Shown here piece after piece: positions 14,643 to 34,709 of a stretch of 64,000 bases of DNA. The notes beneath the pieces are model-generated. The model ran no database searches. It was not told the DNA's origin and was given only the letters and a program-made list of their open reading frames with translations. The stretch is taken from NCBI GenBank assembly GCA_040753555.1, contig JBFMDZ010000001.1:12693-76692 (forward strand), read 5' to 3'. This stretch comes from a bacterium (GTDB lineage: Bacteria; UBA9089; UBA9088). The position numbers were made by a program, and so were the translations under genes. Numbering within the stretch: the first letter of the stretch is position 1; every line of letters starts with the position of its first letter.

Positions 14643-15082
14643 AGCCTCTTTCTTATAAAAATAAAGATTAAAGAAGCAAGGAGAGAATTATACAAACCCT
14701 CCTTTAAAAGATGAAAAAAATTAAGCAAAAAACCCTCAAAAAGAAAAAGAAGAAATAAAGAAATAATGCCAGAAAATATGGTTGATAAAAAGACAAGGAA
14801 AAAGATAATATAAACCCTATGGTATATCCTCTTTGAAAAAATGCTTACCAATATTGCTATTATAGAAAAAGACAAAGCGTTTATTCCAAAACGCCTTATT
14901 CCAAGCAAGTCTAAAAGTATGCCGCAGAAAAATCCAAAAAAACCTGCGCTATACGGAATACATTTCAAGGAGGCAAATATTGTTGTTATAAGAAGAAGGT
15001 TGCAAGATGTATTAAAGAGAATGAGTATTCCTGATGCTTGAACAAGAAACGCAAAAAGAATAATTATTGCCAAAAACACCAA
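14639..15082 (-). CDS. mreD: Rod shape-determining protein MreD-like polytopic membrane protein. TTG start.
   Basis: 147 aa, about 5 TM segments, immediately upstream of mrdA. Confidence 0.5.
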   Translation of the reverse strand: MVFLAIIILFAFLVQASGILILFNTSCNLLLITTIFASLKCIPYSAGFFGFFCGILLDLLGIRRFGINALSFSIIAILVSIFSKRIYHRVYIIFFLVFLSTIFSGIISLFLLFLFEGFLLNFFHLLKEGLYNSLLASLIFIFIRKRL

Positions 15083-15132
15083 TTTATTTTAAACTTTTTA
15101 TTTAAAAAATGGCAAGGATTGGTGTATTTGTT
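15056..15132. repeat. Diverged direct repeat, copy A (about 77 bp). It contains the mreD start and a truncated hdrA 5' end (MARIGVFVL*). Its partner is at 34628-34709.
   Basis: aagaataattattgccaaaaacaccaatttattttaaactttttatttaaaaaatggcaaggattggtgtatttgtt matches 34628-34709 with a few mismatches and indels. Confidence 0.8.
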
Positions 15133-15286
15133 CTGTAATTCAGAAATAACGATTAAGTATGTGTTAGCTATTAGCTTTTGGCTTTTAGCGATTAGCCTTT
15201 TAAACAAGAGAAAAAATTTACAAATTTAGAGATACTTGCACCTACGAAGTGCAAATATATTTTTGCGTTTCTGCGGTAGCATGTTA

Positions 15287-16061
15287 TCATTCAATATCTC
15301 CTTCCATCTTTAATATAATATTTTGCAAATGTTTCAACCTTTCTTTTTCTACTTTCCAATACCCTCTTCTTGCGGATTCTAACAGTAGTTCGTTTATCTT
15401 CATAGTGGCATATGGATTGTTCTGCTTAAGTCTGTTTCTCATCCCCTCATCAAATATTAATCTATCAGCGACCTTATCAAATACCCAACTTTCAACCTTG
15501 CCTGTAGTGGCAGCAAAAGCAAGAAGATATTCTACCCTATCTTTTATCTTCTTTGCGCCATGAAAATCATGCTTTAACATCCCTTCTATCCAAATAGGAT
15601 TAAGTGTTCTTGTTCTTGTAGCCCGCTCAATCGCTATCTTTAAATCATCTACAACCACTTCCTCTTCTGTAGAATCTATAACCAAAATCTCTGCCTTTTC
15701 TCCTCTCTTATCCTGAACTGTTCTTGATAGTCCTCCTAAAAATTCATAATAATGATCTAGGTCTGTAACCTCGTACTCTGTGTTATCCCTTTCCTGAGTT
15801 ACAATATCAATGGATTTAAGCAAATTGGAGAATATCTTCTCATTTTTCTCTATTCTTCCTTTGAAATAGGCATAACTCATACTATCATCATAACTCTTGA
15901 CTAAGTCTTTTTCATCTTTCCAAGCACTACTTTCAACTAATGTTCTCATTGATGTCGCATATTCTGTTGGTGAAGGTCCAAAGATTCTGGCAAGTGCGAA
16001 ATCTTTTAGTTCGCCTTTCAATTCTAAAGAATGTTTTCTTATATCCCATTTTTCTTCAATG
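15287..16061 (-). pseudogene. CobN C-terminal remnant. It covers the last ~250 aa of cobaltochelatase CobN and is fused by deletion directly to the 3' end of the upstream chlID gene.
   Basis: The 244-aa ORF aligns to the C-terminus of the intact CobN (SAWKDEKDL, LNPIWIEGM, NNPYA..LLESARRGYWK). Homology continues upstream of its TTG start (EEKWDIRKHSLE versus EEMNFVRKHSLA), across the chlID stop. Confidence 0.65.
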
Positions 16062-18032
16062 TTAAACCTCGGTAAATTCTCTGATTAGACAAGAGACATT
16101 CTCTGCTTTTATCTCTTCTAAAGAATAATACTTCCCACCTAAAGCCAAAGAGAGTTCCTGCAATCTTCCTAAGCGGACAAATCCTCTTTCTGTATCTATT
16201 ACCAGAGATTTTACCCTTGCTTCTTTTATCCTGTAAGCTATAGCCTTTGCTTCTTCAAATGGTTTACCTCCCTTTTCTATAGAGACATTAGCTTTGCCAT
16301 CGCTAACCAACACCATTAGGGTAGCAAGTCTTTTGTTCTTTCTTAATTCTTGTTTAATAATCTCAAATCCTAATTGCAGGCCTGAAGAAAGAGGAGTTCT
16401 CCCTCCAGTAGGCAACTCAGATAGTTTTTGCGAAGCCAATTCCACACTGTTGGTAAGAGGAAGCAAGACCTCTGCTCTATCTTGCTTGAAACTAACCATA
16501 CTTACTCTATCCCTTTTTTGATAGGAATCAGTGAGTAAAGAGAGAATAGCCCCTTTGGCAGCTGACATTCGTTGTGAGGCACCCATAGACCCTGAGGCAT
16601 CTACCACAAAGACTATCAGGTTACCAACTTTCTTCTCCCTCTGCTTTTGCCGAATATCTTGAGGTGTAATAATTATTTTCTGATTTTCTGAAACCTTATT
16701 TCTTTTTATCTGATGTGGTGCTGCTGCTCTGAATGTAGCATCAAAGGCAATATCATCCTTTCTCTCCTTGGGTAAGCAGCTCTTGATATACCTACCCCTT
16801 TTATCATCAGAAATAGTCTTGCTTCTTCTGCCAGTCCCCTCTTTTAGCTCTCGTTCTTTTGCCAGGTTTAACTCTTTTACCTGAAACTGCCTATCTACAT
16901 CAAAGAGAGTCTCTTTGCTTGCGTCTTGCCTGGCCTGAGGCTGGCAATTGTTCATTTCCTTATCCTGATTCTGATAGCCATCTGTCTGTTTCTTCTCTTC
17001 CTTATGCTTCTTAAAGGTCTGTTCCAGCTTTTGTTGTTCTGTCTTTTCTCCCTGGTGAGGCTTTTTTCGTATTCGGTGGGGCAAAACAAACTCTGCTGCT
17101 TCCTTGACATCATCCTCTGTAACTTCTGTGCGTTGGTTGAAAGCGGCAATTGTTTTAGCTGTCTTCACCATAAATATATCTGCTCGGTGGCCATCTACTC
17201 GCATATCGACTGCTATCTTGGCAATTAGGTCTAACATATCATCAGGAAAGACCACATCCTTAAGTAATCTGCGAGCTGTAAGGATTGCTTCACTCAGTCT
17301 CCTTTCTTCTTTTTCCCACTCAGCAGCAAATTTAGCTGGATCTTCCTCAAACTGCTCTCTTCTTTTGATGATTGTAACCCTCTCTTTAGGCTCGTCTATC
17401 CCCTCAATATTCACACATAAACCGAATCTATCAAGCAATTGAGGTCGCAATTCCCCTTCTTCAGGGTTCATGGTGCCAATAAGGATAAAATGGGCAGGAT
17501 GAGAGTAAGAGACTCCTTCCCTTTCAATTGTATTTATACCCATAGCCGCAGAATCAAGTAGGACATCAACAATGTGGTCATCTAAGAGATTTACCTCATC
17601 TACATAGAGTATGGCTCGATTTGCATCAGCCAATACTCCTGGCTCAAACCTCTTTTCTCCAGTCTTTAGGGCATGTTCAATATCAAGGGTTCCAACTACC
17701 CTATCTTCAGTTGAGCCTACAGGGAGATTGACTACCTGTATCTTCCTTTTAATTACTGGAAGGTTTTCTCCTTGGGTCTTTCGATTACGGCATTGCTCAC
17801 ACATCAATTCTTCCCTCTCAGGATGGCAGCTGAATGGGCAGTCTTTGACCACCTCAATCTCTGGCAAAAGATTTGCTAATGCCCTGGCTGCAGTTGATTT
17901 GGCTGTCCCTTTTTCTCCTCGAATAAGTACCCCAGAAATCTGAGTATTTATGGCATTTAAGATCAAAGCCTTCTTCATCCGCTCTTGACCAACAATAGCA
18001 GTAAACGGAAATGTTATAGCTTTACAACTCAT
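16062..18032 (-). CDS. Mg-chelatase-family ATPase, ChlI/ChlD fusion (AAA+ plus vWA/MIDAS), paralog 1.
   Basis: [10 protein letters not shown]-loop and ChlI-like N-half. C-terminal vWA domain ([12 protein letters not shown]). Confidence 0.85.
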
Positions 18033-19138
18033 CTTTTACCTCCTTTAACAGGAAGATTAAGCTCCTCAGGGTAGGTCCAAGTTCCTTGCAATTCCATCTT
18101 CCAAAATCTCTTTAGCATCTCTTTATGCACAGCCTTTGGCAAAAGATCTGGAAAAAGTTCAGGGTGGAACCATTTTGCCTTATAACAAGTACCTATAACC
18201 TGTCTTGGTCCAGCACAAAGCTTTGAATGGATGATGTAAACCCTCCCTTCCTTTACTGCCTTTATAAGATTTAACCCTTCCCTGTGCATGATCTCATCTC
18301 TAATTGCCTTCATAGCTTCTAAAGAAGGTATACTGCCAACCCCTTCAACCCAAGGAATCTTTATGATAATATCAGGGTCTTTCTCTACAACCCATTCAGG
18401 ACTCATTATTGGGGAGCGAACAGGTTGTCTTCCTACACAATTTATCCCACCTGCTATCTCTATCTGAATCTGCGTAGGACTCTTATACATAAATTTCCCC
18501 CATGGTGTTTTCATTGAGTTTTCTCCTTGAGCCGTTGATTGATAGGGTTTGAAGACCTCACAGAATATGCTTGGCTTTTTTTTAACAGGGATACCTTCTG
18601 TTTTCTCCCTAATCATATCTATCTTACTATTTATAAATTCCTTTAGCTGATTTGCTTCTTTCTCTCTACCAAGCAACTTTCCCATCTTTTCAATAAATTG
18701 GAGGGTTTCAGCAAGCGTCCAAACCCTAAAGCAAAGAACCCTTATCTCTGCTCTCTCTAACTTCTCTATCACCTCTTTCTCTGTCCACTGATAGGCTATA
18801 ACCAAATCTGGCTTAAGTTCTATGATCCTTTCAAGATTTGGAGTGACTGTACTCTTTCCCACTGATGGCTTCTTACGAAGCTCAGGAATATATTCACCCT
18901 CAGGGTTGCAGATGCCTACAATTCTTTCTCCTTCTTTTAAGGCACAGATAACCTCAGCAGGATAGCCAGTCAAGACCACAATTCGCCCTGGAATACTGGT
19001 AAAAGCTGCCTTTCTTCCCATTTCATCGGTTATGACAATCCCTTTTGAAAGACTCACTTCCTCTTCTGGTTTTGGTGCGCAACCGGCAATAAAAACCATA
19101 AGAAAGATGATCAATGCTATCCTCATTTTTACTTTCAC
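18029..19138 (-). CDS. ABC transporter periplasmic substrate-binding lipoprotein (FecB/BtuF/CeuE class III), paralog 1.
   Basis: Lipoprotein signal ([11 protein letters not shown]). Class III substrate-binding fold of the Fe/Ni/cobalamin family. Likely ATG start at 19126. Confidence 0.75.
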
Positions 19139-19164
19139 CGTACGTGTTTAGCTTCGCTAAACAA

Positions 19165-19290
19165 TTGCAAATTGTAAATTGCAAATTGTAAATTTCAAAT
19201 TGAGAGAGGATGAATTTTTTATAATCATTATTTTTTTACCTCTTTAAATTTACAATTTAAAATTTGCAATTTAAAATTTACAATTCCAAA
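19165..19290. repeat. AT-rich AAATTGTAAATT-type tandem arrays in inverted arrangement. Related arrays lie at 22187-22312 and 50124-50175.
   Basis: caaattgtaaattgcaaattgtaaatt...aatttacaatttaaaatttgcaatttaaaatttacaatt. Confidence 0.7.
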
Positions 19291-19353
19291 GCTAATGGCT
19301 AAAAACAAGAGCCCGTAGCTAAACATATACTAAAGGAGCTAAACACATACCTT

Positions 19354-20325
19354 TCACCAAAATATTGCCAATCCAAAGATAAATATTATTGTTATTCCAT
19401 TTCTGATTATCTCTGAGATACCCACCAACTGTAAGCCTATCTTAGGACCAAATATTCCTATATAATAGGGCATAATATATTGAAACACCATGACAACACT
19501 CGAAAGAACACTTCCGATAAGGAGTGAAAGCACCACACCCTTTTGGGTAAGCTCGCCAGCTGATAAGAGGCTACCTGCCACAGTATAGGCAGCATTTGAG
19601 TGTGCCAAGAAGGCAGCAACTATTCCCAATCCTTCAGATGGTATAGGGAAATAAAGAATCACTCCCTTAAGTAGATGAGATAATCTCTCAAAAACCCCTA
19701 ATTCTATCAATAAGCAAGAGAGAATCAAGGTTGGAATTATTACCATAATTATCCGTTTAATCGTATAATTAGAATTCTTCAAGGCAGTACAGAACGCCTC
19801 TTTTAAAGGAAGAATCTTTTTCTTTTCAATACTTGTCTTTGAAGCAGCCCTTTTTTTTAGTATAAGTCTTGCCACTATCATTAGAAGTGATGTTTTAACC
19901 AGAGCTACCAGAACCAGAATAAGGAAGTATAAGAGGCCAGCAAGTCCTAAAAGAGGCAAAAGTATAGGCAACATACTCCGCCAGTGCATGAGGATTGCTG
20001 GAAATGTATTGATCATGGCGGCAAGGAATAACTCCTTCTTTTCAATAACCCCCTTATTATAATAATTAGCAAGCATAGAATTGGCAGATGTAGGTGAAGC
20101 AAAGGCAGAAAGAAAGATTATCCCACATTCATCCTGTAGGTGAGAAAATCTTGTAATTGGTCTTGCCAGAAAGGATAGTCTATCTACCCATCCTAAAGAG
20201 ACAATGAACTCAGCCAGTATAACTCCTAAGATAATGATAGGTACTGTCTTCAGAAGCAACCAACCTGCCATTGTTAAACTACTTAATAATATCTGGCTCA
20301 TCCCACTAACTTGGTGAAAGGGCAA
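19354..20325 (-). CDS. Polytopic membrane protein, nucleoside-recognition (Gate) domain-like. Putative transporter component.
   Basis: 323 aa, about 8-10 hydrophobic segments, co-oriented with the ABC genes. Confidence 0.3.
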   Translation of the reverse strand: MPFHQVSGMSQILLSSLTMAGWLLLKTVPIIILGVILAEFIVSLGWVDRLSFLARPITRFSHLQDECGIIFLSAFASPTSANSMLANYYNKGVIEKKELFLAAMINTFPAILMHWRSMLPILLPLLGLAGLLYFLILVLVALVKTSLLMIVARLILKKRAASKTSIEKKKILPLKEAFCTALKNSNYTIKRIIMVIIPTLILSCLLIELGVFERLSHLLKGVILYFPIPSEGLGIVAAFLAHSNAAYTVAGSLLSAGELTQKGVVLSLLIGSVLSSVVMVFQYIMPYYIGIFGPKIGLQLVGISEIIRNGITIIFIFGLAIFW

Positions 20326-21079
20326 TTATATGAGGTCTGCCTGCACTATTACTTACCTTCACCTCTACTCCATAGACCTCCCTTATGTTCTCTTCTGTAA
20401 AGACTGCCTCTACTTCTCCAGCAGAAAATACCCCTCCTTCTTTGAGCATCATTACCTTATGGGAGTATCGAGCTGCTAAGTTCAAATCATGTATAGCCAT
20501 TATGGCTGAAATCCCTCTTTTGTCTACTATATTTGTAATTAAATCCAAGACCTCCAATTGGTGCCTTAAGTCCAGATTGGAGGTTGGTTCATCAAGTAGA
20601 AGAATTTCAGGCTCTTGAGCCAACGCTCTGGCTATTACCACCTTCTGTCTCTCTCCTCCAGATAGCTGACTAAACTCTCTCGTAGCCATACCCTCAAGTC
20701 CCATCAAATTCAAAAGATGTGCCACTACTTCCTTGTCCTTGGTGCTTACAGACCAAGTTATATATGGTCTTCTACCAAGCAGCACAGTGTCAAATACTGT
20801 GGAATAGAAAGAAGAGTTTGCATCCTGTGGTACATAGCCTACAAGTTTGGCAATCTCTTGAGATTTCATCTGCTTTATGTTCTTTTCCTTTACCAAAATC
20901 TTGCCTATCTTAAACTTCAATATTCTGTTTATACATTTAAGGAGCGTAGTTTTTCCTGAGCCATTTGGTCCTACAAGGGCAAGTATTTCGCCATCTCCAA
21001 CTTCTAAACTTACTCCCCTTAATGCCTCAACGCTATTATAACTAAAATATACATCCTTAATCCTAAGTTTCATTGCCAA
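20306..21079 (-). CDS. ABC transporter ATP-binding protein (FecE/BtuD-like), paralog 1.
   Basis: GPNGSGKTTLL, LSGGERQ, LLLDEPTSNLD. Confidence 0.85.
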   Translation of the reverse strand: MAMKLRIKDVYFSYNSVEALRGVSLEVGDGEILALVGPNGSGKTTLLKCINRILKFKIGKILVKEKNIKQMKSQEIAKLVGYVPQDANSSFYSTVFDTVLLGRRPYITWSVSTKDKEVVAHLLNLMGLEGMATREFSQLSGGERQKVVIARALAQEPEILLLDEPTSNLDLRHQLEVLDLITNIVDKRGISAIMAIHDLNLAARYSHKVMMLKEGGVFSAGEVEAVFTEENIREVYGVEVKVSNSAGRPHIIALSPS

Positions 21080-22137
21080 TACTGTTTCCTTCTTGTTATA
21101 AGTAAATAGAGGAAGAATGGACCTCCTAAGAATGCTACCACTATCCCAACAGGAATGACAGTAGGAGCAATGATTGTCCTGCCTACAGTATCACTTGCTA
21201 AAAGAAGAAAGGCCCCTACAATACAAGAGCCTGGAAAGAGGAATCTATGGTCTGCACCAATAAGTGTTCTTGTTATATGAGGTGACATAAGGCAGATAAA
21301 TCCAATAATTCCTGTAAAACAGATGATTCCAGCCGTAGCCAAGGTTGCCAATACCATCACCACATTTCTTGTCCTGGTGGTGTTTACTCCCAAGCCCTTG
21401 GCCACATCTTCACCTGAGGCCATAGCATTCAAGTCCCAGGAGTACTTAGAAATACCTAATGTCACCAAAAGGGTGAGTATTCCTACTATGGGAAGCATAT
21501 CCCATCCTCCTGTACTCAATGTGCCAAACATCCAGTGAACTAAAGCATGGAGCTCTTCTTTTGTAGCAATATACTGGAGCAGAGATACAAAGGCACTTAT
21601 TATATACATAATGGCAATTCCAGCCAAGATAATGGTCTCTGAACTTACCCCCCTAAGCCTTGAAATACCAAGGACAAGAAAGGCAGCTCCAAGAGCAAAG
21701 ATAAAGGCATTTGATATGATGAAGTACTTCCCACTACTAGCTATGCTTGCCCCAAGGACGATGGCTACTGCTGCTCCAAGGGCTGCACCAGCAGATACCC
21801 CAACAGTAAAAGGACTTACCAGTGGATTCCGGGTTATCCCCTGCATGGCTGCTCCGGAGACTGCAAGTCCTGCACCAGCGATGATTGCCATCAGTATTTG
21901 AGGTAGTCTGAGCTGCCAGACGATTGTATCAGCCATCTTTGATGGTTCAAGGTTAAAGAAGGGAAAAGCCTTCTGAATGATTACTGAAAGTACCTCTGTT
22001 CTTTTAATATCTGCTGCTCCCTGAAAAGAAGCAAATACTGCCAGAATTACTATAGCTATAAGGCCTAAGATTATAAAGGCAAATTTCTTTGCTGTAAGAG
22101 TCTTATAGATATCTTTGTATGTGTTTAGTTCATCCAT
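21070..22137 (-). CDS. FecCD-family ABC permease (iron/nickel/cobalamin type), paralog 1.
   Basis: 355 aa, about 9 TM segments, FecCD signature region (RNPLVSPFTVGVSAGAALGA). Confidence 0.85.
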   Translation of the reverse strand: MDELNTYKDIYKTLTAKKFAFIILGLIAIVILAVFASFQGAADIKRTEVLSVIIQKAFPFFNLEPSKMADTIVWQLRLPQILMAIIAGAGLAVSGAAMQGITRNPLVSPFTVGVSAGAALGAAVAIVLGASIASSGKYFIISNAFIFALGAAFLVLGISRLRGVSSETIILAGIAIMYIISAFVSLLQYIATKEELHALVHWMFGTLSTGGWDMLPIVGILTLLVTLGISKYSWDLNAMASGEDVAKGLGVNTTRTRNVVMVLATLATAGIICFTGIIGFICLMSPHITRTLIGADHRFLFPGSCIVGAFLLLASDTVGRTIIAPTVIPVGIVVAFLGGPFFLYLLITRRKQYWQ

Positions 22138-22346
22138 TGTATGTGTTAAGCTTCCTTATGCTAAAGAGCCAAAAACGCTTTCTTTAATTGTAAATTTTAA
22201 ATTGTAAATTTTAAATTGTAAATTTTTTTAAAATACAAAATCTAAATCAAAACTTCTTCATTCCTCATTTCATTTTACAATTTGCAATCTACAACTTGCA
22301 ATTTACAATTATGTTTAGCGAAGCTAAACACGTACTTTCTTTTGCT

Positions 22347-26321: not shown

Positions 26322-27094
26322 GATAAAGATTTTATTGGTATGATATATGGGCTTACTGAAGCTTTACTTATAATAGCTTCTACCCCATAAACTTCCCTTA
26401 TATTTTCTGGAGTAAATACTTCTTTGGGCTGTCCAATGGCAAAAATCTTTCCCTTCGTAAGAAATAGCATCCTGTCTGAAAATCTAGAGGCAAGATTTAA
26501 ATCATGAATGGCCATTACTATTGCTATAGCTTTCTTCTTTGCTAAAGAGCTGATAAGTTCCATAACCTCAAGCTGATGCCTTAAGTCCAGATTACTGGTA
26601 GGTTCATCAAGGAGCAAAACTTCAGGTTCCTGAGCCAATGCCCTTGCTAAAAGAACTTTTTGTTTTTCCCCGCCACTCAGCTCATTAAAATATCTTAGCA
26701 TCATATCTTCCAAATTCATTTCTTTTAGTATCTGAGAAACAATCTCTTTATCCTTAAAGCTTATACTCCAAGTGATATAAGGTTTTCTTCCTAAGAGCAC
26801 GGCATCAAAAACTGTTAAAGGGAAAGAGTAGGAGGAACTTTGGGGAACATAGCCTAAAAGCTTAGCCAATTCCTTTTGTTTAAACTTGCTTGTCTCATTC
26901 CCATCAAGATAGATAACCCCCTTTTGTGGCTTCAAAATCTTGTTGATGCACTTAAGAAGCGTACTTTTCCCTGATCCGTTAGGACCAAGTATGCTTATCA
27001 CTTCTTCACCTTTTACCTTCACGCTTACATCTTTCAGAGCGGGTCTACTTCCATAGGCGAAGCAAACTCCATTTATCTCTATTCTCATGTCCAA
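26318..27094 (-). CDS. ABC transporter ATP-binding protein (FecE/BtuD-like), paralog 2.
   Basis: GPNGSGKSTLL, LSGGEKQ, Walker B. Confidence 0.85.
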   Translation of the reverse strand: MDMRIEINGVCFAYGSRPALKDVSVKVKGEEVISILGPNGSGKSTLLKCINKILKPQKGVIYLDGNETSKFKQKELAKLLGYVPQSSSYSFPLTVFDAVLLGRKPYITWSISFKDKEIVSQILKEMNLEDMMLRYFNELSGGEKQKVLLARALAQEPEVLLLDEPTSNLDLRHQLEVMELISSLAKKKAIAIVMAIHDLNLASRFSDRMLFLTKGKIFAIGQPKEVFTPENIREVYGVEAIISKASVSPYIIPIKSLS

Positions 27095-28155
27095 TATTCC
27101 TTCCTTCTGGTTATTAAAAGATACACAAAGAATGGAACTCCAATAATCGAAGTTACAATTCCTACTGGAATTATGACTGGAGAAATAATATTTCTTCCTA
27201 TAGTGTCAGCGATGAGTAATAAAAGTGCGCCAAGGATACAGGAAAAGGGGAGAAGAAACCTATGATCCGCTCCGATTAGTAGCCTGGCTATATGCGGTGT
27301 GACAAGACAAACGAAGCCTATTATTCCAGTAAAGCAAATTATTCCAGCAGTAATTATTGTTGCCAATATCAGACAAATTATCCTTACTTGAGGGAGGTTA
27401 ACTCCAAGACTTTTGGCAACTTCATCTCCACCAGATATGGCATTTAAATCCCAGGAATGCTTCATTAAGAAGGGAAAGCAGAAGAAGAATATAATCGATA
27501 CCACTAATACATCATTCCAGCTTGATCCAGTGAGACTTCCAAATGTCCAATGGATCACTGCTTGAAGCTGTTTTTCAGTGGCGATGTATTGGAGTATAGA
27601 GGTAAAAGCTGAAAAAAGATACATCAGCGCAATTCCAGCCAGTATCAAAGTCTCTCCTGTTATTCCTCTCATCCTCGCCAAACCAAGAACTAAAAAAGCG
27701 CTGATTAAAGCGAAGATAAAAGCATTTGTTACCACTATGTATTTTTCACTTCCAAGAAGGCTAAACCCAAGGACAATGGCAATAGATGCTCCAAAGGCTG
27801 CAGCAGAGGAGACCCCAATGGTGAAAGGGCTTACCAAGGGATTTCGCGTAATTCCTTGCATCACTGCACCAGATATGGCAAATCCTGCTCCAGCGATTAT
27901 CGCCATTATAATCCGAGGAAGTCTTATATCCCAGATAATGTCCTCAGTAAACTCTGAAGTTTCTATATTGGCAAAGGGAAAAATTTTAGCCAAAATAGCA
28001 GAAGCTATATCATTTATCTCTATCTGGATAGTACCAATGGTGCAGGCTATAAGCCCCATACCTATAACTGCGCCAATACTGGCAAGAATAAATAATATCT
28101 TCCTTGCAGTAAACCTAAAATACAGGTCCTTTATTTCAGAGGTGGATATGCCCAT
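27085..28155 (-). CDS. FecCD-family ABC permease, paralog 2.
   Basis: 356 aa, collinear with paralog 1. Confidence 0.85.
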   Translation of the reverse strand: MGISTSEIKDLYFRFTARKILFILASIGAVIGMGLIACTIGTIQIEINDIASAILAKIFPFANIETSEFTEDIIWDIRLPRIIMAIIAGAGFAISGAVMQGITRNPLVSPFTIGVSSAAAFGASIAIVLGFSLLGSEKYIVVTNAFIFALISAFLVLGLARMRGITGETLILAGIALMYLFSAFTSILQYIATEKQLQAVIHWTFGSLTGSSWNDVLVVSIIFFFCFPFLMKHSWDLNAISGGDEVAKSLGVNLPQVRIICLILATIITAGIICFTGIIGFVCLVTPHIARLLIGADHRFLLPFSCILGALLLLIADTIGRNIISPVIIPVGIVTSIIGVPFFVYLLITRRKEYWT

Positions 28156-29237
28156 GTTCCTTCAAGTTCTACTCCCCAGAATTTCTTCCACATCTCTTCA
28201 TGTATCTTCTGAGGAGAAATATCGTAAAAGAGATTAGGATGAAACCATTTGGCAAAATAGCAAAGACCAACTATTCCTCTTGGCCCAGCAAGTATTTTTG
28301 AGTAAATGATATAGACCTTCCCTTCCTTTACAGCTTTCACATTTTTCAAAGTTCTCCTTCCAATTACCTCTTCCCATACCTTTTTCATTGTTTCCTCAGA
28401 TGGTGCCCTCCATACTTCTTCATTCTTCCAAAGAGAAAATTTAACGATTATATCTGGGTTTGCTTCCCTAACGAACTCAGGATCTACCTCTAGATAAGCA
28501 ACCGGCTGCTTTCCAATGCAATTTATTCCTCCTGCAAATTCTATCATCCAATTACCAAGATTCTTTGCAGAGTATTCACCCCATGGAGTTAGCAAGGTCT
28601 GTTTTTCTAAAGAGGAAACCGTATGATATTGCTGATAACGTTCTTTGTATACCTTTGGCTTCTTTTCAGGCTTTAAATCTTTGACCCTTTCTTTGATCAA
28701 GTTTAATTTACTCTCTATAAATTCCCAAAGCTCCTTTGCCCTCTTCTCTTTTCCTAACATCTTCCCAAATTGCTCAATCGCTCTATGTACTTCCTCATCT
28801 GTGTAACTTCTGAAGCAAAGAATAGGCATACCCCATTCCTCTAATTTTTCTGCCACTTCCTTCTTAAGATATGGATTAGCTATTACTACATCTGGATTAA
28901 GTTCACGAATCTTTTCCAGATTGGGTTCTACCCAGCTCTCTCCTACAGATTCTTTCTTTCTGAGTTCAGGTAAAAGTTGACTTTTAGGCGAATACATGAT
29001 ACCTACGATTTTATCCCCTTTCCCTAAAGCACAGATTATGTCAGCATTATATGTTCCTGATACGACTACAATTTTCTTAACCGGTTTTGATAAAGAGGTT
29101 TCCCTTCCTAAGTCATCAACAATGGTTATTTTCCCTCTAGGTGCCTTCTCAATCTTCTTCGGAACGGAAGAGAAGACCAAGCTTACTATTAAACCAAATA
29201 TCACTATGGCTATTATAGGCATTATTTTCACTTTCAT
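28131..29237 (-). CDS. ABC transporter periplasmic substrate-binding protein (FecB/CeuE-like), paralog 2.
   Basis: N-terminal signal/TM segment. Collinear similarity to the 18029-19138 protein. Confidence 0.75.
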   Translation of the reverse strand: MKVKIMPIIAIVIFGLIVSLVFSSVPKKIEKAPRGKITIVDDLGRETSLSKPVKKIVVVSGTYNADIICALGKGDKIVGIMYSPKSQLLPELRKKESVGESWVEPNLEKIRELNPDVVIANPYLKKEVAEKLEEWGMPILCFRSYTDEEVHRAIEQFGKMLGKEKRAKELWEFIESKLNLIKERVKDLKPEKKPKVYKERYQQYHTVSSLEKQTLLTPWGEYSAKNLGNWMIEFAGGINCIGKQPVAYLEVDPEFVREANPDIIVKFSLWKNEEVWRAPSEETMKKVWEEVIGRRTLKNVKAVKEGKVYIIYSKILAGPRGIVGLCYFAKWFHPNLFYDISPQKIHEEMWKKFWGVELEGTWAYPPLK

Positions 29238-29293
29238 CCTGCTTTTCCCCTTCCTACTAAAGCTTCTGTAATTTAACCACAGATGAACACAGA

Positions 29294-29740
29294 TTAAATT
29301 ATTAACCTTTCATATTCTAACTTTGGCTGAGCAAAATTTAAAATTAAACCAATCCGGTAACCAGATATCCTTAAATAATTAAGTAACTGTGCTCGATGAA
29401 CATCAGTAATTGTTTCTACTGATTTCACTTCTACAATAACTTTTTCTTCAACTATCATATCAGCAACATATAACCCTACTTCTTTCTTACGATAAAATAC
29501 TTTAAATTCTTTCTGTGTTACAACTTTCTTTTCTCTGAGAGTCAATTCCCAAGTAAGCCCATTTTCGTATACTTTTTCTAATAATCCACAACCCAAGGTA
29601 TTATGTACCTGAAATGCTGCATCTAATATCTCACTAGTTAGTTCCTTATAGAGAAATTCTTGTACTTTATCTGTGTTTACCTGTGGTTTCATATCTGTGT
29701 TTACCTGTGGTTTCATATCTGTGTTTACCTGTGGTTTCAT
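29294..29740 (-). CDS. GxxExxY protein (PD-(D/E)xK superfamily). Its N-terminus is built from a 24-bp x3 tandem repeat.
   Basis: [27 protein letters not shown]-terminal MKPQVNTD x3; the start could be any of the three Met codons. Confidence 0.6.
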
Positions 29741-31706
29741 TTTTTAAGTTACAAAACCCTACTAAAGGTTTCACTACATTCATTAAATTTTGAGTATCAA
29801 GTTTATCCAAGCTATAATATTGTCCTCCACTTATCTCAGCCAGTTCTCGGTTATATCCAAGATTCAAAAAGCCACTGTTGCAATCCACAACTACTAAATT
29901 TATCCCCTGCCTTTTTATCTCTTCTCCAAGAGAGATTACCTCCTTTCTAACATCATTCCCTAAAGGAATATTTCCTCTTCCATCAGAGATTAGCACCATA
30001 ATAGGGATGATATTTTTACTCTTTCTCATCTGGCTCTTTAATATTTCCAGGCCTTTATACAGACCATCGGAAAGGGGTGTTTTACCTCCAGTAGGAAGTT
30101 CCTTAAGACAATTTGCTGCAAGCTCTTGGCTTGAAGTGGGCGGTAAAAGAACCTCAGCCCTTTCCTTTCGGAAGGCAACAAATCCTACCTTATCCCTTTT
30201 CTGATAAGCCTCTTCAAGCAAAGCCATAACTGCTCCCTTTGCCACTTCCATTCTTTGCATCGCTCCCATTGAGCCTGAAGCATCAACTACAAATACAATG
30301 GTTGAGGAAATTTTCTTCTCCCTTACCTTCTCCCTTAGGTCTTCCTCTTCTATCTGGAGACTTCCCTTTCTGATTATTGAAGCTCTCATAGTAGCATCCA
30401 CAGCAATGTCGCTTGCTTTTTCTTGTGGAATTTTAGATTTGATATACTTACCACGGCAAGAGCTTAAGGTTTTAGCTCTTCTTCCTGAACCAATCCTTTG
30501 TTTTTTATCCTTCCTTAGTTTAAATTTTAGCTTCCTTTGCTCCCCGATATCGAAAACCTTCTCTAAATTTCCTTTACTGTTATCTTGTTTGTCTTGATTT
30601 GAACTAGATTCTTGTTGCTCTTGCTGTCTGTTATCTTGATACTTGTTATTTTCCTTCTGCTTAGATTCTTCTTTTTTACCAATTATTCTCTCTATTTCTT
30701 GCCACAGCAGGGGCTGAGGTTGCTCAAATGGTTTTTTCTTCATTCGGTGAGGAAGAACAAACTCAGCTGCCTCTTTCACATCCTCTTCAGTTACCACTTT
30801 TCGCTCATTGAAAGCAGCTATAGTCTTAGCAGTTCTGGCAATAAGAAAATCAGCGCGGTGGCCGTCAACAGCAAAATTGATGCAAATCTCAGCTATTTTA
30901 CATAATAATCTCTCAGGAACTACAACCTCATTCAGCAATTCCATCGCTTTTATAATGCTTTCTCTAAGCTTTCTCTGTTTTCCCTCGTAGCGTTGAGAAA
31001 ATTGCAAAGGTGCTTTTGCAAATTCTTCCACTGTTTTTATAATCTCTATCCTTTCCTCAACTTCTCTTAGTGTTTTAACTTCCACGCTGAGCCCAAACCT
31101 ATCCAGAAGCTGTGGACGGATTTCTCCTTCCTCAGGGTTCATGGTCCCTACAAGAATGAACTTGGAAGGATGAGAAAGTGATATTCCTTCTCTCTGGATG
31201 ATGTTTATGCCCATAGCCGCCGAATCAAGCAGGATATCCACTAAATGGTCATCAAGCAGATTCACTTCATCGATGTAAAGTATTCCTTGATTTACATCAG
31301 CCAGTATGCCTGGCTGCAAAGCTTTTATCCCTTCCTTCAAAGCCTTCTCGATATCCACAGTCCCTATCACTCTATCTTCTGTGGCTCCTAAGGGAAAATC
31401 CACTACTCTCATCTTCCTCTTTTCCTTCGGGAGTTTCTCTTTTCTCCTCCATTTCTCGTTACAAATCTCACACTGAAGTGAGGGATCATGCGGGCTGCAA
31501 TTGAAAGGACATTTTACCACCTCTATCTCCGGCAGAAGCTCAGCCAATGCCCTTACCGCAGTTGACTTGGCTGTTCCTTTCTCTCCTTTAATCAAAACAC
31601 CCTGCAAGTTTGGATTTATAGCATTCAGTATTAAAGCCTTCTTTAGCTTCTCCTGCCCTACTAAAGCAGTAAAAAGCAAAACAGTTCTTTTCATATGGTG
31701 TGCCAT
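29667..31706 (-). CDS. Mg-chelatase-family ATPase, ChlI/ChlD fusion, paralog 2.
   Basis: [10 protein letters not shown]-loop and vWA domain ([12 protein letters not shown]). The C-terminal tail ETTGKHRY x3 is encoded by the same tandem repeat. Confidence 0.85.
29677..29748. repeat. Perfect 24-bp x3 tandem repeat (atctgtgtttacctgtggtttcat).
   Basis: Read directly from the sequence. It spans the chlID-2 stop and the start of the GxxExxY gene. Confidence 0.9.
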
Positions 31707-31718
31707 CTGGCTACCTTC

Positions 31719-33944
31719 CTAAAAACCTAATCTTATTTCCCCAAACCATGAGCGCCCAGGTTCCTTCCAGAAACCGAAATAGTCTTTGTCAAAGATGTTG
31801 TCTATTGAAAGAGACAATGTAGCAAACTTTTTAATCTTCCAAGAGACCTTTGTATCAGCTACAAAATGAGGATCATAAGAAGTATAGATATTGTTTACTG
31901 TATCTTTGTTCTCATCTGTTGCATAAATTTTACTCATATATCGGCCGGTTAGACTTGCGGAAAAAGGCCCTTTTTCAAACTCTGTCCCTACATTAAACAT
32001 CTTCTCAGGCATAAAGGTTAGTCTTTTGCCAACTGTCGCAGGTTTTGCTTCATTCTCTTTTATCTTTGCATCATTATAAGTAAAGTTGGAAAAAACCTTA
32101 AGCCACTTATCAAATTTTTGTTCTACCTCAAGCTCTAAACCTTTACCCTCTGCCTTACCAACATTTATATACTCTTGATAGGTAGGGCTAACTGTCTTTA
32201 AGTAGATGAGATCATCCATCTTGTTCTCAAAATAGCTAATCCCTATTTTTGCACCCTTCCATAAGTCCTGTTTAACCCCAACATCCCAGGAAAAAGTTGT
32301 CTCTGGTTTTAAGTCAGGATTTCCCGCATAAGTAACATTTCTCAATGATGTCCATGTCTTATAGAGCTCAGAAATTGTTGCTGATCTGAATGCTTTGCCA
32401 ATAGATGTTCGTAAAGTAGTTTTTTCAAATGGTTTATAGACAAAGGCAGCCTTTGGACTAAAGGATGATTTCTCTCTTGGGTCATAGTATTTTGGATAAC
32501 CACTGATGCCTACCTGATTTACATAGCCATCATAGGTCTTCCACCAGTCCTGCCTGAACCCAAGATAAGCAGTAAGATTTTCACGAAGAACTATCTCATC
32601 CTGCAAAAACAAGGCATATGTTCTGTCTTTTCCCTTTGATTGATAAGTAAGTTCAGTCTTTGACTCCTTATCCTTCCAGTTTGTAAGATTGTAATCCTTT
32701 GAGTCTGCCCATCCCTGTCTAAATGAGCCACCAAAGGTAAGGATGTGCCTTCCAAAGACAGGGGAAGTGAATTGAAGATCTATGTTATAGCTTTCACATG
32801 GGGTCTCTGTGACCTTACCCGGCCCACCTGCTCGGGTTGCTGTATCAGAAGGCACTGTATTCCAATATTTTTCCCGATCAACCAACCCAAGGGTCAGTTT
32901 TGTCTTGAAAGAAGATATCTTTGTTTCGCAAGTTAGGTTATAATTGTTTTGTTCTGTGCCTAATGAACCGGAAAGAAATGAAGACTCATTTACAGTTTTT
33001 GTTTTAGTTCCAATTACAGTTACATATGACCAGACTGGATTTCCGGCTGCATCTTTAAGATATGTCTTGGGGTTATCATAGTTGTATTCGAAGCCGATTC
33101 TATGAAATGAGAAATTAATCTTTGATGCTTTGCTAAAGTCATACCCTGTCTTGAAGGTAAAATTTTTATCCCACCAGCTGTTGTCTCCTTTGTCTCCAAT
33201 TAAGTAGCAAGTGTTCCCTCCTCTATCTTTGGTCTCTGTCCATCCAGTGATATTTGCAGGAGGTTTGATCCCTACCACACTAAGATCTGTGGGATAACCT
33301 TTGGTTGCCTTATATCCATAACTTAAAAAGAGGCTCAATTTGTCTTTTAACTTATCAGCGTAAGAGAAATAAAGGTTTCCTAAATCATCCATAGCTTCTC
33401 CTCTATTCCAGCCTGAGCCATAGCCACTTTTGAGAAAAAATTCTCTCTTTTCTGGCATCTTGGTGATGATATTTACTACCCCTCCCATGGCATAACCGCC
33501 ATAGAGGCTTGAAAATGGACCTTTAACCACCTCAATCTTTTCTATATCCTCTGGCGCTAAGCCAGCAAAACGGACACTACCAGAGTAAGCATCATTGAGA
33601 GGAATACCGTCCATTAAGATTAATGTTCTATCTTGTGACGGGAATCCCCTCAAAGTAACCTTAGCGATACTATCCATAAGTCCTTTAGTTCGCTTGCTAT
33701 AGACACCAGGAACCATATTCAATGCCTCATCAACTGCTTTAATATTTCTTTTTTCCATATCCTTTTTCTTAACCACAGATGTAGATGCTGGCACTGCCTC
33801 TATTTCCTTCTCTACCCTTGTAGCCGTAACCACTATCTCTTCACCATAGATGGTAAGGACTGACTCCTCTCTCTCTTCAGCCTCAAGAGTTGAGGTCAAG
33901 CCCAACACCAAGATATTTACCCCCAAAAGTATCCTTCTTAACAT
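31719..33944 (-). CDS. TonB-dependent outer-membrane receptor.
   Basis: Signal peptide, plug domain (IVVTATR...), 741 aa, C-terminal ...RLGF terminal Phe. Confidence 0.85.
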   Translation of the reverse strand: MLRRILLGVNILVLGLTSTLEAEEREESVLTIYGEEIVVTATRVEKEIEAVPASTSVVKKKDMEKRNIKAVDEALNMVPGVYSKRTKGLMDSIAKVTLRGFPSQDRTLILMDGIPLNDAYSGSVRFAGLAPEDIEKIEVVKGPFSSLYGGYAMGGVVNIITKMPEKREFFLKSGYGSGWNRGEAMDDLGNLYFSYADKLKDKLSLFLSYGYKATKGYPTDLSVVGIKPPANITGWTETKDRGGNTCYLIGDKGDNSWWDKNFTFKTGYDFSKASKINFSFHRIGFEYNYDNPKTYLKDAAGNPVWSYVTVIGTKTKTVNESSFLSGSLGTEQNNYNLTCETKISSFKTKLTLGLVDREKYWNTVPSDTATRAGGPGKVTETPCESYNIDLQFTSPVFGRHILTFGGSFRQGWADSKDYNLTNWKDKESKTELTYQSKGKDRTYALFLQDEIVLRENLTAYLGFRQDWWKTYDGYVNQVGISGYPKYYDPREKSSFSPKAAFVYKPFEKTTLRTSIGKAFRSATISELYKTWTSLRNVTYAGNPDLKPETTFSWDVGVKQDLWKGAKIGISYFENKMDDLIYLKTVSPTYQEYINVGKAEGKGLELEVEQKFDKWLKVFSNFTYNDAKIKENEAKPATVGKRLTFMPEKMFNVGTEFEKGPFSASLTGRYMSKIYATDENKDTVNNIYTSYDPHFVADTKVSWKIKKFATLSLSIDNIFDKDYFGFWKEPGRSWFGEIRLGF

Positions 33945-34075
33945 TTTTTTACCTCCTTTTATGTTACTTTTTTAAAATTCATGCTACCAAAAGTCTACCA
34001 AAAAAATTTATCTCATGTCAATAAAAATTTATTACCTTTTTAAAATTCGTGCTACTTAAAAGAAAAAAAATATCC

Positions 34076-34495
34076 TCATACTATCTCTTCCCCTGTAGTA
34101 GCCATACTCAGACTGCCGTATTTTACCCCTTTGGTGGACTTCAGTCTAAAAGCAAGTCTCTCTACTTCTTTAGGCATACCTTTAACTGCAATTATCTCCA
34201 AGCAATTATTATGATCTAAATGGATATGTTGTGATGAAAGGATAAGTTTATGCTCCCCATGTTGAATATCTGTTAACTTATTCACTAACTCTCTTCGGTG
34301 GTGGTTATAGACAAGGACAACTGCTCCACCTACTTCCCTTTCATCGGTCATCCACTCGCGCTTTACCAAACTCTCCCTTATTAAATCCCTTATTGCCTCT
34401 GAGCGGTTAGGATAATCCTTCTCTTCAAGCAGTCTATCAAATTTAGTCAGGAGTTCTTTATCAATTGATATCCCAAAACGAACCAACTGCGACAT
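34076..34495 (-). CDS. nikR: Nickel-responsive transcriptional regulator NikR.
   Basis: Ribbon-helix-helix N-terminus (RFGISIDKELL...NRSEAIRDLIR) and C-terminal metal-site residues (HIHLDHNNCLEI). Full-length alignment to E. coli NikR. Confidence 0.85.
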   Translation of the reverse strand: MSQLVRFGISIDKELLTKFDRLLEEKDYPNRSEAIRDLIRESLVKREWMTDEREVGGAVVLVYNHHRRELVNKLTDIQHGEHKLILSSQHIHLDHNNCLEIIAVKGMPKEVERLAFRLKSTKGVKYGSLSMATTGEEIV

Positions 34496-34570
34496 AAGTC
34501 AGACCTCTTTTATAATATTACTTTTATAAAAATAGTAGCACAAGCTTTAAAGAAATGTCAAGCAAAATTT

Positions 34571-34638
34571 TTGCAATGTTTAGTTACAATAATAAAATGT
34601 TAATCTTTTTGAAAAAGCAATCACAAGAAAGAATAATA
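34571..34638 (+). promoter_or_regulatory. Candidate sigma70-type promoter(s) for hdrA. The nikR leader lies on the opposite strand.
   Basis: TTGCAA-16-TAAAAT at 34571-34598 and TTGAAA-17-AATAAT at 34610-34638. Confidence 0.25.
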
Positions 34639-34709
34639 ATTATTGCCAAAAACACCATCTTATTTTAAACTTTATTCTTAAAAAATGGCAAGGATTGGTG
34701 TATTTGTTT
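34628..34709. repeat. Diverged direct repeat, copy B. It contains a truncated mreD start (MVFLAIIII...stop on the minus strand) and the intact hdrA start.
   Basis: Matches 15056-15132. Confidence 0.8.

Follow-up and report, generated by a model that had tools for sequence, protein, structure and literature searches.

A NikR-linked bacterial gene island possibly coupling nickel-repressed chelate uptake to a CobN-type chelatase-like machine

Motors that pair a MoxR/ChlI-type AAA+ ATPase with a VWA partner place metal in, or remodel, protein or cofactor sites in the NorQ/NorD and CoxD/CoxE systems, which differ from the locus described here in having neither a CobN-type subunit nor uptake genes. 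CobNST and ChlHID/BchHID combine ChlI-type AAA+ and VWA partners (TIGR02442) with a full-length CobN-Mg_chel subunit bearing the HDPD histidine, features that this locus shares. The Hmu operon of Bacteroidota (HmuY-R-S-T-U-V, HmuS/BtuS) has in common with it a TonB-dependent receptor, a CobN/ChlH-superfamily subunit and ChlI/ChlD-like AAA+/VWA partners, as well as a putative role in obtaining metal from imported chelates and not in making a cofactor (PMC12583661, PMC6460266). However, HmuS is membrane-anchored and periplasm-facing, carries a Met-rich insertion and Met79/His254 heme ligands, uses a reductant instead of ATP, and belongs to an iron and heme response. Nickel uptake under NikR in Helicobacter pylori, with FrpB4/FecA3 receptors, ExbBD-TonB and CeuE with FecDE, likewise joins a NikR-controlled TonB-dependent receptor to a class III substrate-binding protein (SBP) and FecCD-type importer, there for a nickel chelate (PMC5385501, PMC11247825), but it includes no chelatase-type proteins, has another operator consensus, and its SBP and receptor are only weakly similar to those found here. 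In delta-proteobacteria, NikR operators (GTGTTAC-N13/14-GTAACAC) occur in both orientations in uptake-gene promoters (PMC545781). The corresponding regulons (nikMNQO/nikKMLQO; Rodionov et al. 2004) share operator consensus and promoter placement with our locus, but they control a hydrogenase and Nik transporters of the ECF type, and a CobN/ChlID/TonB cluster was not found as a NikR target in the NikR-regulon literature searched.

The locus is a 19.5-kb island (block 15133-34628) in the window, the whole 64-kb stretch of DNA analysed here. Its two ends are marked by copies of an 80-nt direct repeat (family D2 of the repeat search; 73/80 positions identical, spacing 19576). The left copy (15053-15132) holds the true mreD 5' end together with a pseudo hdrA start (MARIGVFVL*), and the right copy (34629-34708) a pseudo mreD 5' end, a spacer and, on the plus strand, the ATG with which the hdrA-like gene truly starts (34685). 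GC content was 39.7% in the island and 36.5-36.8% in the flanks. All island genes, defined by ORFs, Pfam and NCBIfam, lie on the minus strand, and 13 long ORFs are intact. The gene content proposed by the first-pass annotation of this DNA was recovered in full, with every coordinate, the order and the strand unchanged. Its statement that the window holds no other cobalamin-biosynthesis genes also stands, as the remaining ORFs of 120 aa or more include no cob/cbi gene, and an Rfam scan of the window called no family, the cobalamin riboswitch included.

At the high-coordinate end, nikR (34076-34495) encodes a 139-aa Ni-responsive ribbon-helix-helix repressor (Pfam RHH_1 and NikR_C; NF003381, 194 bits against a cut-off of 105) whose closest solved relative is P. 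horikoshii NikR (143 bits) and whose Ni-ligand His/His/His/Cys motif columns are conserved. Predicted sigma-70 promoters were located on the minus strand for nikR (34532-34561; TTGACA, 18 nt, TACTAT, extended TG; 10/12 matches) and for the receptor operon (33992-34021; TTGACA, 18 nt, TAGACT, extended TG). Against the delta-proteobacterial consensus GTGTTAC-N13-GTAACAC (PMC545781), a NikR-type box at 34515-34541 covers the -10 region of the nikR promoter, reading GTGCTAC-N13-GTAATAT on the gene strand (11/14 positions, canonical inverted orientation). The receptor promoter is flanked by box 1 (34029-34055; plus strand TTATTAC-N13-GTGCTAC; a copy of direct-repeat family D6), which abuts the -35 element upstream, and box 2 (33961-33987; plus strand ATGTTAC-N13-ATGCTAC), directly downstream of the -10 element; in both, the half-sites are direct rather than inverted, with three mismatches each to the consensus. 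Across the window, 10 boxes with at most three mismatches were found where ~6 would be expected by chance, and three of them lie in the promoter regions of nikR and the receptor, which together span 320 nt (Poisson P ~2e-5). The intact repressor with its Ni ligands, these three boxes on both predicted promoters and the recurrence of the consensus in other genomes support the nickel-responsive control suggested in the first-pass annotation, with NikR predicted to bind the boxes. The 11.6-kb stretch from the receptor to CobN would form a single transcript.

The receptor itself (31719-33944, 741 aa, plug and barrel) is TonB-dependent; its top NCBIfam match was a heme/hemoglobin receptor subfamily (227 bits, under the 317 cut-off), it also fell under the cut-off of the BtuB model, and its solved relatives are distant only. 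Downstream of it lie two transporter sets. One comprises SBP2 (28131-29237), a periplasmic class III Peripla_BP_2 protein with a signal peptide, a FecCD-family permease (27085-28155) and an ABC ATPase (26318-27094), the last two assigned by Pfam; SBP2 matched IsdE best among NCBIfam models (76 bits against a cut-off of 299), and its solved relatives include H. pylori CeuE (E ~4e-9). The other, whose permease and ATPase were again assigned by Pfam, comprises a FecCD-family permease (21070-22137), an ABC ATPase (20306-21079), a Gate-domain polytopic membrane protein of nucleoside-recognition/FeoB type (19354-20325), and SBP1 (18029-19138), a lipoprotein-like class III SBP. A 50% identical homolog of the Gate protein lies between ATPase and CobN in a related locus (L004).

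Each set is accompanied by a ChlI/ChlD-type AAA+/VWA motor, ChlID 2 (29667-31706, 679 aa; TIGR02442, 788 bits against 779) and ChlID 1 (16062-18032, 656 aa; 834 bits), the latter being nearer to the motors of related clusters, with which it shares up to 75% identity. Between ChlID 2 and SBP2 lies a GxxExxY/PD-(D/E)XK family gene (29294-29740; PDDEXK_3 and TIGR04256) with a 24-nt tandem repeat in three copies (29668-29740, family D3) and a matching inverted copy downstream. This gene looks like an element inserted within the operon: the last ~25 residues of ChlID 2 are encoded by the tandem repeat, so that its C-terminus has been rewritten, and in L146, the closest relative, its place is taken by an ABC-2 exporter pair. 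The second transporter/motor set has no NikR box of its own, and the sets are parted by repeat-rich spacers, one at 22138-22346 with AATTGTAAATT arrays and a hairpin (GTGTTTAGC...GCTAAACAC), the other, its inverted partner, at 19139-19353; the two pair as inverted repeats I2, I4, I6-I8 and I10 in the repeat search.

The intact CobN-type large subunit (22347-26321, 1324 aa; Pfam CobN-Mg_chel, 1330 bits), here termed CobN-B, scored 2025 bits against NF004646. It passed the equivalog models for CobN (TIGR02257, 825 bits against a cut-off of 822) and BchH (833 against 829) equally narrowly, so neither assignment is specific. Judged by these profiles, it belongs to a clade of its own (NF004646), about as far from the CobNST as from the ChlHID subunits and distinct from classical cobaltochelatase. 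HmuS is farther from it (382 bits) than are CobN (594) and ChlH (511). CobN-B is predicted to be cytoplasmic, having no TM anchors, signal peptide or Met-rich insertion, and it further differs from HmuS in its Cys motifs, the FecCD-type ABC importers alongside and the NikR boxes in front. A clade-invariant insertion, C519-x6-C526-x4-C531-x4-C536, adjoins His541 of HDPD; relative to CobN/ChlH, five residues including a Cys have been inserted before this motif, whose histidine is kept. C1128-C1130 (CCC) stands where CobN has SDD and ChlH VSH, and the "EHD" of CobN reads EYD. These invariant Cys motifs map to two cleft-lining segments, where they could hold an Fe-S cluster as an alternative to nickel. 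The first-pass claim that this is not classical cobalt insertion is borne out by the clade assignment and borderline equivalog scores, by Cys replacing the Asp of CobN and the His of ChlH, and by an uptake operon with NikR boxes in place of nearby cob/bch genes or a B12 riboswitch. Neither of the two outcomes that the annotation had set against its own reading was observed.

A second CobN sequence, a 244-aa C-terminal fragment (15287-16021; profile positions 866-1089 of 1090), belongs to another CobN lineage and is probably a decayed gene. The description of the two modules as tandemly duplicated, one having lost its CobN, needs revision. With sequence identities of only 47-57% within the transporter and motor pairs, and of 36% between the fragment and intact CobN, the paired genes are old paralogs from different lineages rather than products of a recent duplication; two old paralogous sets plus a decayed CobN of different lineage describe the island better.

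We compared about 80 (80-82) related loci. A cluster of [receptor/TonB]-SBP-FecCD-ATPase-(ABC-2 exporter)-CobN-B-ChlI/D is kept across phyla, with the CobN-B clade spread over Leptospirales, Desulfobacterota, Nitrospirota and Bacillota, and no cob/cbi genes were found in the related clusters. Although nikR itself was found in none of these loci, being adjacent in the window only, consensus NikR boxes recurred in about ten other lineages, where they stand at promoters of the CobN/ChlID/receptor/ABC cluster. In 1.24 Mb from 80 loci, all boxes with zero or one mismatch lay between a TTGACA -35 element and the cluster's leading gene (L006/L007, L057, L052, L076), and L054, L059, L080 and L021 added boxes with two mismatches; the box-bearing loci belong to Desulfobacterota and Leptospirales. 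Boxes were enriched in promoter segments (7/190, compared with 10/5000 random segments; Fisher P = 1e-6). The receptor promoter of L146 carries GTGTTAC-N13-ATGCTAC, the counterpart of box 2 in the window and the sole box with at most two mismatches in its 24 kb; gene order from receptor to CobN matches the window, while the receptors are only 39% identical. That unrelated anaerobes, too, have a nickel operator ahead of these genes suggests that this widespread "CobN" family has a function connected with nickel. Regulation across the family is not uniformly nickel-based, because four receptor-bearing loci have another conserved leader element in place of the NikR box and a cobalamin riboswitch heads the CobN-B-containing cluster in two Bacillota loci (L027, L068). 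In both of the latter the riboswitch directly precedes a classical CobN-A paralog (TIGR02257, 1066-1113 bits in the Bacillota loci where it co-occurs with CobN-B) rather than CobN-B. No cobalamin riboswitch was found in 25/28 related loci scanned or in any of the six scanned receptor-bearing loci.

We tentatively propose, at a little under even chances, that the island serves Ni-repressed import of a metal chelate and its cytoplasmic processing by an ATP-driven CobN-type machine. When nickel is scarce, NikR would leave the operators at its own and the receptor promoters, and the receptor and SBP/FecCD/ATPase importers would carry a metal chelate into the cytoplasm. This chelate is most plausibly tetrapyrrole-like, because all characterised members of the CobN/ChlH/HmuS superfamily act on tetrapyrroles. 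There, a class-I-chelatase-type machine of Cys-rich CobN-B and its ChlI/ChlD AAA+/VWA motor would most likely strip or exchange the metal, freeing nickel for the cell; what the ligand is, and that metal is removed and not inserted, are both inferences. A reverse-acting precedent is the receptor-linked CobN homolog HmuS, a heme dechelatase (PMC12583661), although the analogy is weakened by HmuS being periplasmic and ATP-independent, whereas CobN-B appears cytoplasmic and has AAA+ partners.

An unlikely alternative is that CobN-B and ChlI/D act as an ATP-dependent cobaltochelatase of anaerobe type, or put metal back into salvaged corrinoid precursors that BtuBFCD-like transport has imported, with the NikR linkage reflecting Ni/Co cross-talk or being incidental. 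The NCBI name of NF004646 ("cobaltochelatase subunit CobN"), the narrow TIGR02257 pass, the riboswitch-headed clusters and the weak BtuB/BtuF similarity of receptor and SBPs fit this account, and several known transporter families mix Ni- and Co-specific members (PMC2667541). Yet the BchH model was passed as narrowly, the CobN residues SDD and EHD are replaced, cob/cbi genes were found neither in the window nor in the related clusters, riboswitches were lacking from the window and most scanned loci or, in L027 and L068, stood directly before CobN-A, and NikR operators recur at cluster promoters. That the machine instead inserts Ni(2+) into a made or imported tetrapyrrole, the transporters supplying nickel or macrocycle, was the version favoured by the first-pass annotation. 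It draws on the same NikR evidence, on the suitability of a thiolate-rich cleft for Ni(II) and on ATP-driven insertion being the canonical direction of ChlHID and CobNST, but we consider it improbable. To our knowledge, Ni-tetrapyrroles are made by one pathway only, that of F430, which relies on CfbA, a class II chelatase, and is restricted to methanogens and ANME, whereas the CobN-B clade occurs in the four groups named above. Nickel repression and a presumed transcript shared with a high-affinity outer-membrane receptor favour acquisition over biosynthesis, no tetrapyrrole-biosynthesis genes are linked, and the ABC-2 exporter of related clusters would suit disposal of a stripped ligand.

Hmu-type acquisition, in which the receptor imports heme and CobN-B takes out its iron, has more distant prospects still. 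Two CobN homologs linked to receptors, HmuS and BtuS, free iron from heme (PMC12583661, PMC6460266), and the top matches of the receptor and SBP2 are heme proteins; these matches are nevertheless far under their cut-offs, CobN-B lacks the membrane features of HmuS and is farther from it than from CobN or ChlH, and no Fur box above background was found in the window, control apparently lying with NikR. It is scarcely plausible that the island was acquired horizontally, is now decaying and no longer serves any coherent function, despite the flanking repeat and raised GC, the truncated CobN, the GxxExxY insertion altering ChlID 2, the repeat-rich spacers and the different hdrA neighbours in the nearest relatives. 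Against decay, the 13 long ORFs are intact, the 1324-aa CobN keeps all clade-invariant motifs, the predicted promoter/operator architecture is undamaged, and L146 has the same order from receptor to CobN.

Gene content and predicted regulation best support a reading of the island as a nickel-repressed acquisition system with chelate import and cytoplasmic processing. All 14 genes listed in the first-pass annotation were recovered by the ORF list, Pfam and NCBIfam with the same coordinates, order and minus-strand orientation. In descending coordinate order these are nikR (34076-34495; RHH_1 and NikR_C domains, NF003381), a TonB-dependent receptor gene (31719-33944; Plug and barrel, Pfam), the gene for one of two ChlI/ChlD-type AAA+/VWA motor proteins (ChlID2, 29667-31706; TIGR02442), a GxxExxY/PD-(D/E)XK protein gene (29294-29740), genes for a substrate-binding protein (SBP2), FecCD permease 2 and ATPase 2 (26318-29237), an intact cobN of 1324 aa (22347-26321; NF004646), permease 1 and ATPase 1 (20306-22137), a Gate-domain membrane protein (19354-20325), SBP1 (18029-19138), ChlID1 (16062-18032; TIGR02442) and a 244-aa CobN C-terminal piece (15287-16021). 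Both motor proteins have a ChlI-type AAA+ module, an AAA lid and a C-terminal VWA domain (Pfam), with TIGR02442 scores of 834 and 788 bits for the two paralogs (cut-off 779) and a 359-bit match of the ChlI/ChlD motor to solved ChlI structures. The receptor has generic Plug and barrel membership only: its subfamily scores were below cut-off, including those for heme receptors (TIGR01785, 227 bits vs 317) and BtuB (TIGR01779, 187 bits vs 600). No cob or cbi genes were found among the remaining ORFs of the window, bearing out the earlier statement that it holds no other cobalamin-biosynthesis genes. Rfam called no family at all across the 64 kb at gathering threshold, so there is no cobalamin riboswitch in the window.

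Judged by its sequence, the window NikR is a full member of its family. It scored 194 bits against NF003381 (cut-off 105), P. horikoshii NikR comes closest to it among solved structures, and its QH...HIHLDHNNC stretch aligns with QH...HVHMDEHNC of that protein and with H. pylori NikR. The His/His/His/Cys columns are conserved in this alignment, and these we take, from established NikR structures, to be the high-affinity Ni site. The delta-proteobacterial NikR operator is GTGTTAC-N13/14-GTAACAC, with both orientations occurring (PMC545781). Scanning the window for two 7-nt half-sites 13-14 nt apart with up to three mismatches returned 10 NikR-type boxes (predicted sites) vs approximately 6 expected by chance, and three of these fall in the 320 nt upstream of nikR and the receptor gene (P ~2e-5), the same upstream regions with which the two best minus-strand promoter predictions of the island coincide. 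The nikR box (34515-34541) has 11 of 14 matches in canonical orientation and lies over the predicted -10. At the receptor promoter, a 29-nt repeat present twice supplies two boxes (34029-34055 and 33961-33987) that flank the predicted -35 and -10, with three mismatches each and half-sites in direct, non-canonical orientation. Operators upstream of these two genes, which the first-pass annotation had named as a check on its nickel reading, are predicted at three positions, each with three mismatches. The closest relative (locus L146) carries the same box at its receptor promoter (GTGTTAC-N13-ATGCTAC after TTGACA), as the sole box with ≤2 mismatches in 24 kb, and the two receptors are only 39% identical. 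Fur control of the island was considered and rejected because no Fur box was better than background.

A scan of species-representative genomes with the window CobN identified 80 related loci, in Nitrospirota, Desulfobacterota, Thermodesulfobacteria, Leptospirales, other Spirochaetota, Bacillota, Armatimonadota and Methanothrix, with the common cluster [receptor, TonB]-SBP-FecCD-ATPase-(ABC-2 ATPase + permease)-(Gate)-CobN-ChlI-ChlD. No NikR homolog was encoded within 10 kb in any of the 80. NikR boxes were located between a TTGACA -35 and the first cluster gene in many of these loci: without mismatch before cobN in L006 and L007 and before the receptor gene in L057 (Leptospiraceae), with one mismatch in L052 and L076, and with two in L054, L059, L080 and L021. 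Boxes with ≤2 mismatches occurred in 7 of 190 promoter-proximal segments vs 10 of 5000 random segments (Fisher P = 1e-6), an enrichment implying that nickel-type regulation of the cluster is predicted to recur beyond the window and is not an accident of it. Such regulation is not universal among related clusters.

The intact window CobN belongs to a clade that we refer to as CobN-B, as distinct from classical, TIGR02257-type CobN (CobN-A). Its best model is NF004646 (2025 bits vs a cut-off of 1468, model positions 1-1276 of 1277) and not TIGR02257 (cobalto_cobN, 825 bits vs 822), with BchH at 833 bits (vs 829). Clade members from three phyla score similarly on these models, and homologs of the window protein are 60-74% identical across phyla. 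Among solved structures, it matched M. tuberculosis CobN (594 bits), ChlH (511), another CobN (501) and HmuS (382). Two signatures were invariant in all clade members seen. One is a C-x6-C-x4-C-x4-C motif, including a 5-residue insertion, directly before the HDPD histidine, which is equivalent to CobN His522 and HmuS His538. The other has CCC in place of the SDD of solved CobNs and the VSH of ChlH, and EYD in place of the CobN EHD; by coordinates, it corresponds roughly to the HmuS cleft stretch Q1198-H1209. The cleft residues of solved CobNs (…PRGF-x-HDPD; EHD…SDDY) are hence not kept in the window CobN, which has the Cys insertion and EYD…CCCY. These cysteines might just as well bind an Fe-S cluster.

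The two CobN types also meet in single loci. In two Bacillota (L027:670-869 and L068:1436-1636), a cobalamin riboswitch is followed by CobN-A, ChlD/ChlI, and then CobN-B with its ABC importer; the riboswitch-proximal proteins are clear classical CobNs (TIGR02257, 1066-1113 bits). This gene order indicates a common motor-gene set for both types within the cluster, and their coexistence argues for different functions. Cobalamin riboswitches were detected in 3 of 28 scanned loci, two of them directly before the CobN-A paralog, and in none of six receptor-bearing relatives scanned with Rfam; with none in the window either, riboswitch control was rejected for the island. Several Nitrospirota and Thermodesulfobacteria have CobN as two genes (~815 + ~500 aa; L009:9983-13963, L043:9980-13981, L041:9956-13909, L076:9986-13947). 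Selenocysteine was rejected as an explanation of these 'split' forms since a real stop codon is followed by a new start, making them two-gene CobNs.

Chelatase-superfamily proteins in metal-uptake operons are of a known kind; the nickel logic, cytoplasmic location and distinct active-site chemistry predicted here would be new. HmuS and BtuS are periplasmic with N- and C-terminal membrane anchors, whereas the window CobN has no signal peptide and no membrane anchor or hydrophobic segment. They also carry a ~120-residue methionine-rich insertion and exceed 1400 aa (PMC12583661), in contrast to the shorter window protein, which has no such insertion (≤4 Met per 60-aa window over its 1324 aa). The axial heme ligands of HmuS/BtuS are Met79 and His254, where head and neck meet. 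By its lack of signal peptide, anchor and insertion, the window CobN is cytoplasmic and is not an HmuS/BtuS protein. The function of many CobN-annotated proteins of anaerobes and archaea without cob linkage has been stated as unclear (PMC12583661). No paper in the literature searched, a coverage outside which Rodionov et al. (2006, J Bacteriol) falls, linked NikR to a CobN/ChlID cluster.

In the nickel-acquisition reading, the receptor and ABC importers would take up a chelate, which an ATP-driven CobN-B/ChlID machine would process in the cytoplasm. As to reaction direction and ligand, we infer that metal removal or exchange fits better than biosynthetic insertion, given that nickel represses the system, that it has high-affinity uptake genes, that related clusters add an exporter, that HmuS offers a precedent, and that the clade occurs in organisms making no known Ni-tetrapyrrole. 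A more specific version, which we consider improbable, is that CobN-B and ChlI/ChlD form an ATP-driven nickel dechelatase or transmetallase for Ni tetrapyrroles that the receptor and ABC importers take up from the environment, for example Ni-porphyrins or the coenzyme F430 that methanogens release. Once extracted, Ni(II) would pass to the Cys-rich cleft, while the empty macrocycle would leave through the ABC-2 exporter of related clusters. If true, heme-iron piracy would have its counterpart for nickel, and the large 'CobN' clade that is an orphan in methanogens and anaerobic bacteria would gain a function.

The main rival is a cobalt or corrinoid system, because of the Bacillota loci with a cobalamin riboswitch and because many transporter families include variants for Ni as well as for Co. 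The initial view that the island does not perform classical cobalt insertion is nonetheless supported by membership of the NF004646 clade, by the altered cleft residues, and by a window in which neither element of the classical CobN context, cob/cbi linkage or a cobalamin riboswitch, was found. Heme or iron acquisition, suggested by sub-threshold similarities of the receptor and substrate-binding proteins and by nothing else, has the lack of a Fur box against it. Nickel-repressed acquisition stays the best supported reading, and there are three handles on the clade: a nickel repressor and an operator predicted to recur at cluster promoters in several phyla; constant association with chelate-type import, and often with export; and clade-specific, thiolate-rich replacements at cleft residues that are Asp/His in the enzymes for cobalt and magnesium. 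Should the link hold, anaerobes that depend on hydrogenase and CODH would have a new nickel acquisition or handling route, the 'cobaltochelatase' annotation in wide use would be corrected, and the 'reverse chelatase' principle, a recent discovery, would reach further than heme iron.

Other leaders were found among the related clusters. Four receptor-bearing loci have a conserved 63-nt leader in place of a NikR box (L009:1214-1276, L035:3195-3256, L043:6407-6471, L060:5651-5715), with 14 further matches in 11 metagenome contigs (e.g. L133:6441-6503, L087:1518-1581). The element has the pattern GGGCAGGG…CTTTGGCGAGGATGCCCTGCCCC…AGGGA and was seen in related CobN clusters, within the leaders of their TonB-dependent receptor genes. 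It is not present in the window, and has no Rfam match even at E ≤ 10. Its predicted hairpin had no covariation support in the pattern-selected metagenome set. We regard it as a candidate new cis-regulatory RNA. The receptor leader of L042, whose CobN is 68% identical, is a tandem duplication of a ~165-nt element (L042:1-330) ending in its own Shine-Dalgarno and ATG, and is a candidate for another, different regulatory leader of the same cluster. A hairpin with a sequence-conserved base (CCA[C/T]GAAGG … CTTC[G/A]TGG), an inner stem that varies and a T-run behind it was also seen just 5' of CobN-B or receptor genes in Bacillota and Desulfobacterota, and behind genes in some loci (L014:8602, L015:9939, L017:9935, L019:9937, L029:9067, L034:9692, L035:3085, L040:4004, L002:188, L004:~95, and others). 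It may be a conserved attenuator or terminator, with the conservation of stem sequence across phyla being odd.

The island may have been inserted into its surroundings. An 80-nt direct repeat (15053-15132 and 34629-34708, 73/80 identical) brackets the 19.5-kb block 15133-34628, whose GC content is 39.7% vs 36.5-36.8% outside. Each repeat copy comprises the 5' end of mreD, a spacer and the 5' end of an hdrA-like gene, which makes one of the two mreD starts and one of the two hdrA starts a pseudo-copy. The hdrA of the nearest relatives available (71-81% identity) either comes after ruvAB or has mvhD immediately behind it, and there is no nikR island. Pfam detected no integrase within the block, and no empty mreD-hdrA junction was found in any relative examined. 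The direct repeat, GC shift, paralog and fragment anatomy, and other hdrA neighbours in relatives suggest that the block is an island inserted at the mreD-hdrA junction. Beyond it (34685-41328), LysM/NlpC-P60, YkuD and Uma2 genes lie between the hdrA-like gene and mvhD (39608-40030), with an ORF6N gene behind mvhD. A relative at 71% identity (L145) has hdrA, mvhD and the Fe-S genes contiguous, and by comparison the redox operon of the window appears to be broken by inserted genes.

The two modules of the island had been described as a tandem duplication, but the paralogs are only 53% (ChlID1/2), 47% (substrate-binding proteins), 56% (ATPases) and 57% (permeases) identical, which rules out a recent one. 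The description of the C-terminal CobN piece as a remnant was correct; its 36% identity to the intact CobN places its origin in a different CobN lineage. The database sequences closest to it are without exception short parts of CobN genes that are longer or in decay, including three ORFs in a row behind a ChlID gene in L082, two CobN pieces in L084, and pieces with transposases on their flanks in Methanotorris. The piece was accordingly rejected as a free-standing family.

The GxxExxY gene is an insertion in the operon. In it, a 24-nt unit is repeated perfectly three times in tandem and recurs in inverted form just downstream (29294-29750), and the repeat now encodes the last residues of ChlID2 as a new C-terminus. 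The element behaves like a small mobile insertion, and L146 has an ABC-2 exporter pair at this position. In relatives, comparable operon positions hold other selfish genes, with an AAA ATPase gene in the case of L001 and a toxin-antitoxin-like pair in that of L042. The permease 1-ATPase 1-Gate block is flanked by two inverted, repeat-rich spacers (19139-19353 and 22138-22346), as if it were a cassette or invertible segment. The spacers are mutual inverted copies (40-nt arms 98% complementary), rich in AATTGTAAATT(G/T)(C/T)AAATTG arrays and GTGTTTAGC…GCTAAACAC hairpins.

Elsewhere in the window, a single 387-aa ORF (7439-8602) encodes both a DarT ssDNA ADP-ribosyltransferase domain and a Macro domain (fused parts of a DarT-DarG type toxin-antitoxin), near other defence or selfish genes (Schlafen/AlbA_2, 2714-3865; AAA_14/DUF4143, 11547-12770). 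The homolog of the flagellar hook protein FlgE encoded at 45560-50104 is, at 1514 aa, unusually long, and is adjoined by FlgD (50205-50657).
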